IMG/VR virus record: IMGVR_UViG_3300033067_000365 | Span: 5,574-69,573 of that record | Origin: a virus | Taxonomy: Duplodnaviria > Caudoviricetes | Reading direction: 5' to 3' (one strand) | Length of the DNA stretch: 64,000 nt | Part shown: positions 31,828-35,448 of the stretch, one piece after another | How positions within the stretch are numbered: the stretch's first letter is position 1 | Layout: every line of letters begins with the position of its first letter | Program-made: the position numbers and the translations under genes | The notes under the pieces: generated by a model | Told to the model about the DNA's origin: nothing | Database searches by the model: none | The model's input: only the letters and a program-made list of their open reading frames with translations

Positions 31828-32008
31828 TTAGTTCTGGTTACGATTCCAGAGTGCGCTTTTCGTAGCACCGCAAAACAATACGCTGTGTCCTTTGCAGTCT
31901 TATTTGGCAATAAGACCCTAGAGTGTTACCTCCATGTTACCTCGCAACAGATTCGAGGGACGCCTTCTACATAGTAGATAACCGTTAGCGCAACGGTCCT
32001 AAGGGGAC
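31828..32008 (-). ncRNA. candidate structured RNA / long leader upstream of terS
   Basis: About 180 nt non-coding region with at least 6 hairpins (e.g. GTCTTATT/AATAAGAC, ACCGTT/AACGGT, CCTCG/CGAGG). Confidence 0.5.
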
Positions 32009-32505
32009 TTGTTAAACTCACAATTTTTATGAGTTTTATTTCTTCCAGAAATACAAGAATAAACAGCAGAAGGTGTAAAACCAGCAGCTATTAGTTCTTG
32101 CTTGCCAGATAATTCTATAATCTTACCAGTTACCAGATTTTTACAAATAATCGTATATTTTCTAATACCTGTCCTACTTTTATTACCAAGAGCATTCTTT
32201 TTACCTAAAGGTATTGGAGGTAGCCCACCACCCTTTGTAATGTTCCAGCCTATCTTATCTGAAGGTCTTAGCATCTCTTCAATAAAGCAAGCAAACTCTT
32301 TATCTAGTCCTGTAACTAAAATAATTTTATCAAGATTATCCCAACCATATTTACTAATGGCCCTACTCAATATTGAGGTAGACATTAGTTTCTCATGGTC
32401 ATTAAATCTTCTACTTACATTTGAACTGATACCAATATATCCCTCATTTAAATAGTCTGAAGAGTCTCTTTTAGTTATCCAGTAGACCGAATAATTGTTA
32501 GACAT
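31999..32505 (-). CDS. GIY-YIG homing endonuclease (NUMOD-type C-terminus)
   Basis: YSVYWI...YIGIS.N..RRF..H; WNITKGG. Confidence 0.85.
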   Translation of the reverse strand: MSNNYSVYWITKRDSSDYLNEGYIGISSNVSRRFNDHEKLMSTSILSRAISKYGWDNLDKIILVTGLDKEFACFIEEMLRPSDKIGWNITKGGGLPPIPLGKKNALGNKSRTGIRKYTIICKNLVTGKIIELSGKQELIAAGFTPSAVYSCISGRNKTHKNCEFNKSP

Positions 32506-32788
32506 TATTTTCGTCAGTAGGTTCTGCTAGTTTCTCTGCTACTGCACCTGCAGCTTTACGACCAGAGATACCACCTAATGTACCAACGCCCATAAAGGCA
32601 ATGGCCTTTAGGATTTCAAGGAATATTGCATCGATTGGTGCTAATACTGTAGATTGGTCTTCGAAGGCAATAGCCCACATAACACCCATCGCAATTAAAA
32701 ATACCATTGAAGTAATCGCTTTAACTACGAAAGCCCATACACGAACTTCAATTTGGTCGGCAGTCATGCCTTTATAACTATCTAACAT
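32498..32788 (-). CDS. two-TM membrane protein (holin-like)
   Basis: Two hydrophobic helices; G.LGG..G motif. Confidence 0.6.
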   Translation of the reverse strand: MLDSYKGMTADQIEVRVWAFVVKAITSMVFLIAMGVMWAIAFEDQSTVLAPIDAIFLEILKAIAFMGVGTLGGISGRKAAGAVAEKLAEPTDENNV

Positions 32789-33741: not shown

Positions 33742-33819
33742 TGGTCCGTAATGAGCGATTCGAACACTCGATATCTTGGCCCCAAACCAAGTGACTTAAC
33801 CAGACTAGCCTAATTACGG
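33742..33819 (-). tRNA. trnP: tRNA-Pro(TGG)
   Basis: Acceptor CCGTAAT/ATTACGG+ACCA; anticodon arm CTTGG-TTTGGGG-CCAAG; TTCGAAT loop. Confidence 0.88.
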
Positions 33820-33827
33820 ATATTAAT

Positions 33828-33868
33828 TGGTGGACAATCTTTGGCTGACCGTAGCCTATACATCGCCC
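33828..33868 (-). ncRNA. 41-nt tRNA-acceptor mini-RNA ending in ACCA
   Basis: GGGCGAT/ATTGTCC 7-bp stem, one internal hairpin GGCT-ACGGTC-AGCC, 3' ACCA. Confidence 0.55.
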
Positions 33869-33873
33869 GTATT

Positions 33874-33966
33874 TGGCGGAAACGGTGAGACTTGAACTCA
33901 CACACCCATCTCTGAGCCTTCTGCTTTCAAAACAGCTGCCGCTAGACCGACTCGGCTAACGTTTCC
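33874..33966 (-). tRNA. trnS: tRNA-Ser(TGA)
   Basis: Long variable arm, loop TTTGAAA, encoded CCA. Confidence 0.88.
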
Positions 33967-34065: not shown

Positions 34066-34143
34066 TAAATTATTTAGATACGAGGAATTTTCTCTGCGTA
34101 TCCTGAACCTTCATTATTCATAAATGCTCCTATATATTATATT

Positions 34144-34488: not shown

Positions 34489-34516
34489 ATTATAGCACAA
34501 ATCCTAACGGATTCAA
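34489..34516 (-). promoter_or_regulatory. internal tRNA-cluster promoter
   Basis: TTGAAT-16-TATAAT with TGTGC before the -10. Confidence 0.55.
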
Positions 34517-34942: not shown

Positions 34943-35347
34943 TTAATGACCAGTTCTATCGTAGATAGCTCTTCTGCGCTCTGGCGTATAGTATCTAGCT
35001 TGAACTTCTCTTTTAACATTTTTACAAGCTTCGCACCTGCAACCATGTTTGTCATATTTGTTTATTGTACCACATTTTGAGATAGGTCTTCTTGCATCAG
35101 CAGTATTACAGACTAAATGGCTAAAACTAATATTATTTAAATCAAAATAAAGTTCTTTTGGATTCTCACTGTCTAGCCAAGGTGTCTTATGTTCTATTGA
35201 AAATGTTTCTCTTGTCATTTGCTGACCACATTTACAACATTTGCCTTGTCCAGTTTGTAAAATTAAATCCCACAAGATATCTTTAACTAATCTGTGACTT
35301 GCTGTACTAGGATTCATACCTAGCTGCTCTGTTTTCTTATCTTTCAT
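34943..35347 (-). CDS. HNH endonuclease within the tRNA cluster
   Basis: CCKC...SIEHK.PW...N..FSH..CN; C-terminal CRC..C. Confidence 0.8.
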   Translation of the reverse strand: MKDKKTEQLGMNPSTASHRLVKDILWDLILQTGQGKCCKCGQQMTRETFSIEHKTPWLDSENPKELYFDLNNISFSHLVCNTADARRPISKCGTINKYDKHGCRCEACKNVKREVQARYYTPERRRAIYDRTGH

Positions 35348-35371: not shown

Positions 35372-35448
35372 TGGAAGCGAGAGGCTGGATTTGAACCAGC
35401 GTTCTTTACCTTATGAGGGTAGCGAGATGACCACTTCTCTACTCTGCT
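35372..35448 (-). tRNA. trnM: tRNA-Met(CAT) (Met or Ile2 not resolved)
   Basis: CTACC-CTCATAA-GGTAA; T arm GCTGG/CCAGC; CCA; one bulged base in the acceptor stem. Confidence 0.8.

Follow-up and report, generated by a model that had tools for sequence, protein, structure and literature searches.

The tRNA-like domain of tmRNA is a natural non-tRNA that carries a G3·U70 pair and is charged by alanyl-tRNA synthetase (AlaRS), and phage T4 makes two small stable RNAs, species 1 and species 2 (rnaC and rnaD), which are about 120-140 nt long, not alanine-type and co-transcribed with the phage tRNAs. AlaRS itself is the textbook synthetase that ignores the anticodon. The bacterial alanine identity set consists of A73, G2-C71, G3·U70, G4-C69 and G20 (PMC9976931). 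The synthetic substrates minihelix-Ala and microhelix-Ala have a 7-bp acceptor helix and no anticodon (Francklyn and Schimmel 1989, cited in PMC9976931). Truncated and fragmentary tRNA genes have been described in prokaryotes and phages; most such fragments trace back to integration events or to CRISPR activity, and a single end of the tRNA survives in them (PMC9897764). Our searches of the full-text literature returned no description of a natural phage alanine minihelix.

Here we describe a 41-nt alanine-type mini-tRNA, made up of an acceptor stem, one hairpin, A73 and CCA, at positions 33828..33868 (minus strand) of the window, which is the whole 64,000-nt stretch of phage DNA that was analysed. 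By its sequence it is a tRNA-Ala-derived optional cassette, 44 nt long as an insertion, in a phage tRNA operon, and it is without both the anticodon arm and the T arm. The DNA comes from an uncultured freshwater phage, an IMG/VR virus contig of 69.6 kb that is 87% complete by CheckV and whose large terminase shares 88% identity with its counterpart in Limnohabitans phage DC31 and 45-49% with those of Curvibacter and Pseudomonas phages. The tRNA array of the window holds ten genes (Thr, Ile, Glu, Asn, Tyr, Trp, Ser, Ser, Pro and one found by Rfam only), the first 5.5 kb of the contig contain two more tRNA-like genes, and no tRNA-Ala was found in the contig at this level of completeness. The Rfam-only tRNA (35376-35447, minus strand, 50 bits), missed by ARAGORN, lies upstream of an HNH endonuclease gene (34943-35347), and the gap between tRNA-Ser(GCU) and tRNA-Trp is occupied by a 15-codon ORF (MNNEGSGYAEKIPRI; 34074-34121, minus strand) with a TAGGAG ribosome-binding site. 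The 41-nt element lies between tRNA-Ser(UGA) upstream (33874-33966, minus strand) and tRNA-Pro(UGG) downstream (33742-33819, minus strand), both called by ARAGORN and Rfam, and it occupies a slot of tRNA size whose spacers are of normal length, 5 nt on the tRNA-Ser side and 8 nt on the tRNA-Pro side. The discriminator of the neighboring tRNA-Ser(UGA) (33877) differs by allele, being G in the window and in the relative L005, U in L004, L012 and L061, and A in L175.

Read in the minus-strand direction (33868..33828), the element begins with the 7 nt of its 5' acceptor strand; after a 5-nt linker come a 4-bp stem closed by a 6-nt loop and a second linker of 4 nt, and the 7 nt of the 3' acceptor strand then lead into A73 and CCA. 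The letters and the placement between tRNA-Ser and tRNA-Pro given by a first-pass annotation of this DNA are both exact. The 5' strand GGGCGAU (nt 1-7; 33862..33868, minus strand) pairs with the 3' strand AUUGUCC (33832..33838, minus strand) to give seven acceptor pairs, G1-C72, G2-C71, G3·U70, C4-G69, G5·U68, A6-U67 and U7-A66, of which G3·U70 and G5·U68 are wobble pairs and the former joins the G at 33866 with the U at 33834. The discriminator A73 and the encoded CCA take up 33828..33831 (minus strand), and CCA is also encoded by the adjoining Ser and Pro tRNA genes. Above the 7-bp stem comes a 5x4 internal loop and then a D-arm-like hairpin (33843..33856, minus strand) of 4 bp (GGCU/AGCC) closed by the 6-nt loop ACGGUC. 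RNAfold returns this structure as the minimum free energy fold of the element alone (-13.9 kcal/mol, z -2.15), and the same structure is obtained when the flanks are included.

The element falls outside the established classes of small tRNA-related RNA. ARAGORN calls neither a tRNA nor a tmRNA at this site, and no Rfam family, RF00005 or any other, matches at E<=10. A canonical tRNA folds as a cloverleaf with an anticodon arm and a T arm, whereas here an acceptor stem carries one hairpin, and tmRNA combines its tRNA-like domain with a T arm, pseudoknots and a tag reading frame, whereas the element is 41 nt only. The name minihelix was first applied to it, but the element is no classical minihelix because the T arm is missing: there is no 12-bp coaxial acceptor-TΨC stack and no GGUUCGA-type loop. 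With minihelix-Ala and microhelix-Ala it shares the 7-bp acceptor helix, G3·U70, G2-C71, A73, a single-stranded CCA and the lack of an anticodon; it differs from them in being naturally genome-encoded, in that the 5x4 internal loop and the 4-bp D-like hairpin replace the T stem-loop, and in that its 4-69 pair is C-G rather than G-C. It resembles the T4 species 1 and 2 RNAs as a module other than a tRNA within a phage tRNA operon, presumably freed by tRNA-processing enzymes, although it has no sequence or Rfam relation to them. The fragmentary tRNA genes of PMC9897764 resemble it in being tRNA-derived, patchy in distribution, missed by tRNA finders and set among intact tRNA genes, but the element differs from those fragments in keeping both acceptor strands and the CCA while its interior has been lost.

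On letter-for-letter identity, the ends of the element derive from tRNA-Ala, because they are the same as those of real phage tRNA-Ala genes. When IMG/VR was searched for both acceptor strands with ACCA, 45-72 nt apart, 58 matches were obtained, at least 28 of which are full-length tRNA-Ala genes called by ARAGORN. These share the acceptor stem, discriminator and CCA of the element at every position (7+11 end letters), come from very different phages, are nearly all UGC (two are GGC) and have 20 distinct bodies; the remaining matches lie in coding DNA and are roughly as many as chance would give with 18 letters fixed and the gap variable. An earlier fallback reading of the element as a deleted tRNA-Val or tRNA-Ala remnant is thus supported for its alanine half, whereas nothing indicates valine. 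A host origin of the acceptor was considered and rejected: among about 185,000 bacterial species genomes, only 4 have a tRNA-Ala(UGC) gene that combines this stem with an encoded CCA (genomes without an encoded CCA escape the search), and the stem is therefore far more common in the phage contigs searched than in these genomes.

The shape of the element alone, a stem followed by NCCA, is weak evidence. A generic 7-bp stem with NCCA was seen in 6 of 156 inter-tRNA gaps against 4.0 ± 1.9 expected from shuffles (∼2.6%), and there is no class-wide excess of acceptor-like stems with NCCA in such gaps over shuffles. Adding the demand for G1-C72, G2-C71, G3·U70 and A73 lowers the chance rate by an estimated factor of roughly 1/860. 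Hence chance becomes negligible because the element ends exactly in the alanine type and not because of its bare shape, and by this reckoning of its letters the element is more than chance. Within the bacterial alanine set, G3·U70, A73 and G2-C71 are present, whereas position 4-69 is C-G instead of G4-C69 and no loop position can be assigned as G20; the C4-G69 pair is also found in the natural phage tRNA-Ala genes that carry this stem. The first-pass annotation had stated that G3·U70 together with A73 lets AlaRS charge minihelices, which agrees with the published account (PMC9976931), and, since AlaRS ignores the anticodon, an RNA of this kind would be among the few tRNA stubs that a cell could still charge.

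The interior is of a different character. Comparison of the inner 23 nt with the bodies of the matching tRNA-Ala genes, with long deletions allowed, gave no significant likeness (p=0.41). The hairpin resembles a D arm in the UA ahead of its stem, the A behind it and the GG in its loop, but the linker ahead of it has 5 nt in place of the expected 2 nt, its 6-nt loop is below the size of a normal D loop, and no T-loop motif is found in the interior. Derivation of the interior from a full-length tRNA-Ala by one deletion is therefore not supported, the likeness being not significant and the linker and loop sizes off. A stretch of 12 nt (element nt 6-17; 33852..33863, minus strand) recurs unchanged as nt 3-14 of the tRNA-Pro(UGG) allele found in the relatives L017, L018, L019 and L030, a length of identity that 7 of 500 shuffles reach (p about 0.014), and in these four relatives that allele sits in the slot after tRNA-Ser. 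A chimeric origin, with alanine-type ends joined to a Pro-like D arm, is possible on this comparison.

We assessed the distribution of the element among 80 relatives gathered via the terminase and in wider collections. The only true copy elsewhere is that of L005/L145, which differs from the window at a single position of the unpaired 3' linker (33842, minus strand), where L005 has G and the window has A. Counted by distinct contexts upstream of tRNA-Pro among the relatives, the element is present in 1 of 27 (L005) and missing in the other 26. In L004, L008, L012, L013 and L061, tRNA-Ser(UGA) is followed by tRNA-Pro after 10-13 nt with no element between them; aligned with L004, L012 and L061, whose Ser(UGA)-Pro spacer is 10 nt, the window carries a 44-nt indel (33825..33868, minus strand), and this indel is clean, as removal of the 44 nt gives back the spacer of L004 and L012. 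Contigs from Logan, ENA and JGI that carry the closest homologues of the downstream ORF (96-85% identity), the two nearest (96% and 91%) included, are without the element. Searches of IMG/VR with the exact element, with the acceptor pair around any 15-44 nt interior, with the interior pattern and with both junction patterns, of JGI metagenomes with the interior pattern, and of cultured phages by BLAST yielded no further copy beyond L005/L145. Other short pattern matches were rejected as copies, as they fall within coding DNA, away from any tRNA.

Between about 33880 and 33400 the window and L005 share 95-100% identity, against 77-94% elsewhere, and they differ in the tRNA-Ser allele just upstream of the element. 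Within the same block the tRNA-Pro shows five differences, all of them compatible with its structure. Because both copies of the element lie in one recently shared, near-identical block, they count as one observation and carry no signal of covariation or constraint; two copies with one unpaired substitution and no compensatory changes do not make a conserved RNA family. The first-pass annotation had named an unconserved element and a full tRNA in the relatives' slot as outcomes that would speak against its proposal. The element is indeed unconserved beyond one near-identical relative, but the slot in the relatives is empty, and the junction patterns found no full-length tRNA in it in IMG/VR. 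A tRNA-Ala with the acceptor of the element was likewise found in none of about 80 relatives. In the window, a segment at about 32000-32600 that contains a homing-endonuclease-like ORF (31999-32505) is missing from L005, and is therefore an insertion in the window phage.

A sigma-70-like promoter sequence with an extended -10 (34489..34516, minus strand), matching the consensus at 10 of 12 positions, lies upstream of tRNA-Glu, and, likewise by consensus matches only, no terminator-like site was found between it and the ORF downstream of the element, so that co-transcription of the element with the array is plausible. We favor, at about even confidence, an interpretation in which the element is a lineage-restricted relic derived from tRNA-Ala, or a passenger cassette, without a selected role. 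A tRNA-Ala gene would have been gained by module exchange and then shortened and rearranged, possibly via recombination with a tRNA-Pro gene. The 41-nt element would be transcribed together with the tRNA array and cut by RNase P at G1, which we infer because an acceptor helix with a 3' ACCA provides the main RNase P determinants; the 8-nt trailer would be trimmed to the CCA by exonucleases, releasing a 41-nt RNA that may be chargeable to some extent by AlaRS. Co-transcription and excision of this kind probably take place.

Much in the locus fits a relic without a selected role. As expected of a relic, both ends are homologous to a real tRNA, shared as they are with at least 28 full-length tRNA-Ala genes, while the essential anticodon and T arms are missing; the indel is clean, and other shortened tRNAs occur in the family. 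Against this, no full tRNA-Ala was found in the slot of the relatives, nor any with this acceptor among about 80 of them, and decay in place is therefore undocumented. The interior, with its 5-nt linker in place of 2 nt, its 6-nt loop, its lack of a T-loop motif and its insignificant likeness to tRNA-Ala bodies, does not look like the product of a single deletion, and both helices of the element are perfect.

A second reading, which we regard as possible but put forward only tentatively, is that the element is a working, non-decoding, alanine-accepting mimic of tRNA, one that would be excised, charged by host AlaRS through G3·U70 and A73, and active through its acceptor end. Such an RNA could act by competing for AlaRS or by soaking up defence toxins that read the acceptor stem and the CCA end. 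Hipps and Schimmel are said to have found in 1995 that expressed minihelices inhibit growth by competition for their synthetase, which would favor a mimic. The acceptor identity is complete except for the 4-69 pair and is accompanied by an encoded CCA, many real phage tRNA-Ala genes use the same acceptor, the element is laid out like a cassette between spacers of its own, and the interior is no simple deletion product. In addition, the toxSAS enzymes, which act against phages, recognise pairs of the acceptor stem and modify minihelices in vitro (PMC11559606), and by analogy they offer a concrete precedent in principle for a decoy role, with no link of such a system to the window phage. The case for a mimic is weakened by the distribution, which consists of two copies in one recently shared block, with no covariation and with the element missing from all other relatives. 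Moreover, because there is no T arm, the element is without the 12-bp acceptor/T stack of the minihelices that have been tested and of EF-Tu ligands.

Nor does the phage genome offer a consumer for an alanylated RNA. It contains no FemAB/FemX-like transferase or acetyltransferase, no aminoacyl-phosphatidylglycerol synthase domain and no CCA-adding enzyme; in the absence of a Fem-type or aminoacyl-lipid transferase no phage-encoded user of alanyl-RNA was found, which tells against a mimic. The role of alanine donor, which like that of a decoy had been proposed in the first-pass annotation, was rejected on this ground. The more far-reaching claim, that host AlaRS loads this 41-nt non-decoding RNA and that the element is one case of recurrent phage alanine-type acceptor mimics that compete for AlaRS or divert enzymes, defence toxins among them, seems to us unlikely. 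If it were true, a mini-RNA expressed and alanylated in nature would take the biochemistry of minihelices beyond model substrates and into biology, and would point to a phage tactic against synthetases or against acceptor-stem-reading defences. On its own, this copy is too little to sustain the claim of a mimic, being in effect a single, unconserved occurrence; it is useful as a well-defined substrate for tests and as a data point for any census of shortened tRNAs in phage arrays.

RNase P accepts hairpins with a 3' RCCA as substrates, and it is conceivable, if distinctly improbable, that the acceptor helix and ACCA persist solely as a cleavage site at which RNase P releases the 3' end of tRNA-Ser(UGA) as well as the 5' leader of tRNA-Pro, in which case charging would be irrelevant. 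The exact position of the element, 5 nt past the CCA of tRNA-Ser and 8 nt ahead of tRNA-Pro, would suit such punctuation. In relatives, however, this Ser-Pro pair is processed across a spacer of just 10 nt, and the element is therefore not needed for Ser-Pro processing; RNase P cleavage at tRNA-Pro already parts the two tRNAs. Lastly, a hairpin formed by chance in an AT-rich spacer and ending in CCA by coincidence, in keeping as this would be with the lack of enrichment of such stems in inter-tRNA gaps, is very unlikely, given that all 18 end letters are those of a natural tRNA-Ala acceptor, that the spacing is that of a tRNA slot and that a D-arm-like UA-GGCU-A..GG motif lies within the element.

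Other shortened or unusual elements are present in these arrays. The slot before tRNA-Pro is variable among the relatives and may hold one of several tRNAs. A conserved, structured non-tRNA element of ∼80 nt lies just upstream of tRNA-Pro in three of them (L016:152-232, L022:5287-5366 and L026:4880-4952); it has two hairpins with two compensatory pairs, ends in ACACCA in 2 of 3 cases and has no Rfam match. A 52-nt element of L036, L038, L083 and L080 was considered as a second mini-tRNA and rejected, its fold being no better than those of shuffles. In Limnohabitans phage DC31 (L001:7272-7342), and at the matching site of L019, an unannotated 71-nt tRNA-like gene between tRNA-Pro and tRNA-Tyr has a 7-bp acceptor stem, a T arm and CCA, with an irregular anticodon region that includes CAU. 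The contig of the window itself bears, at its start and outside the window, a 65-nt tRNA-like gene (G000:C1:86-150, the same as L172:86-150, plus strand; Rfam tRNA, 46.9 bits) in which the acceptor, D and T arms are kept, the 3' strand of the anticodon stem is missing and no CCA is encoded; on these features it is a second shortened tRNA of the window phage. In the slot between tRNA-Ser(GCU) and tRNA-Pro of L060 (6192-6251), a 7-bp stem (TTGAAAG/CTTTCAA) without CCA encloses a T-loop-like hairpin with the loop motif GGTTCGAA and looks like a tRNA remnant, and L052 (3518-3565) carries, 10 nt from a tRNA, a 48-nt remnant of tRNA-Leu(UAG) that retains the anticodon loop, the T arm, the 3' acceptor strand and ACCA. 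Shortened tRNAs in L052, in L060 and in the contig of the window are therefore part of the normal turnover of these arrays.
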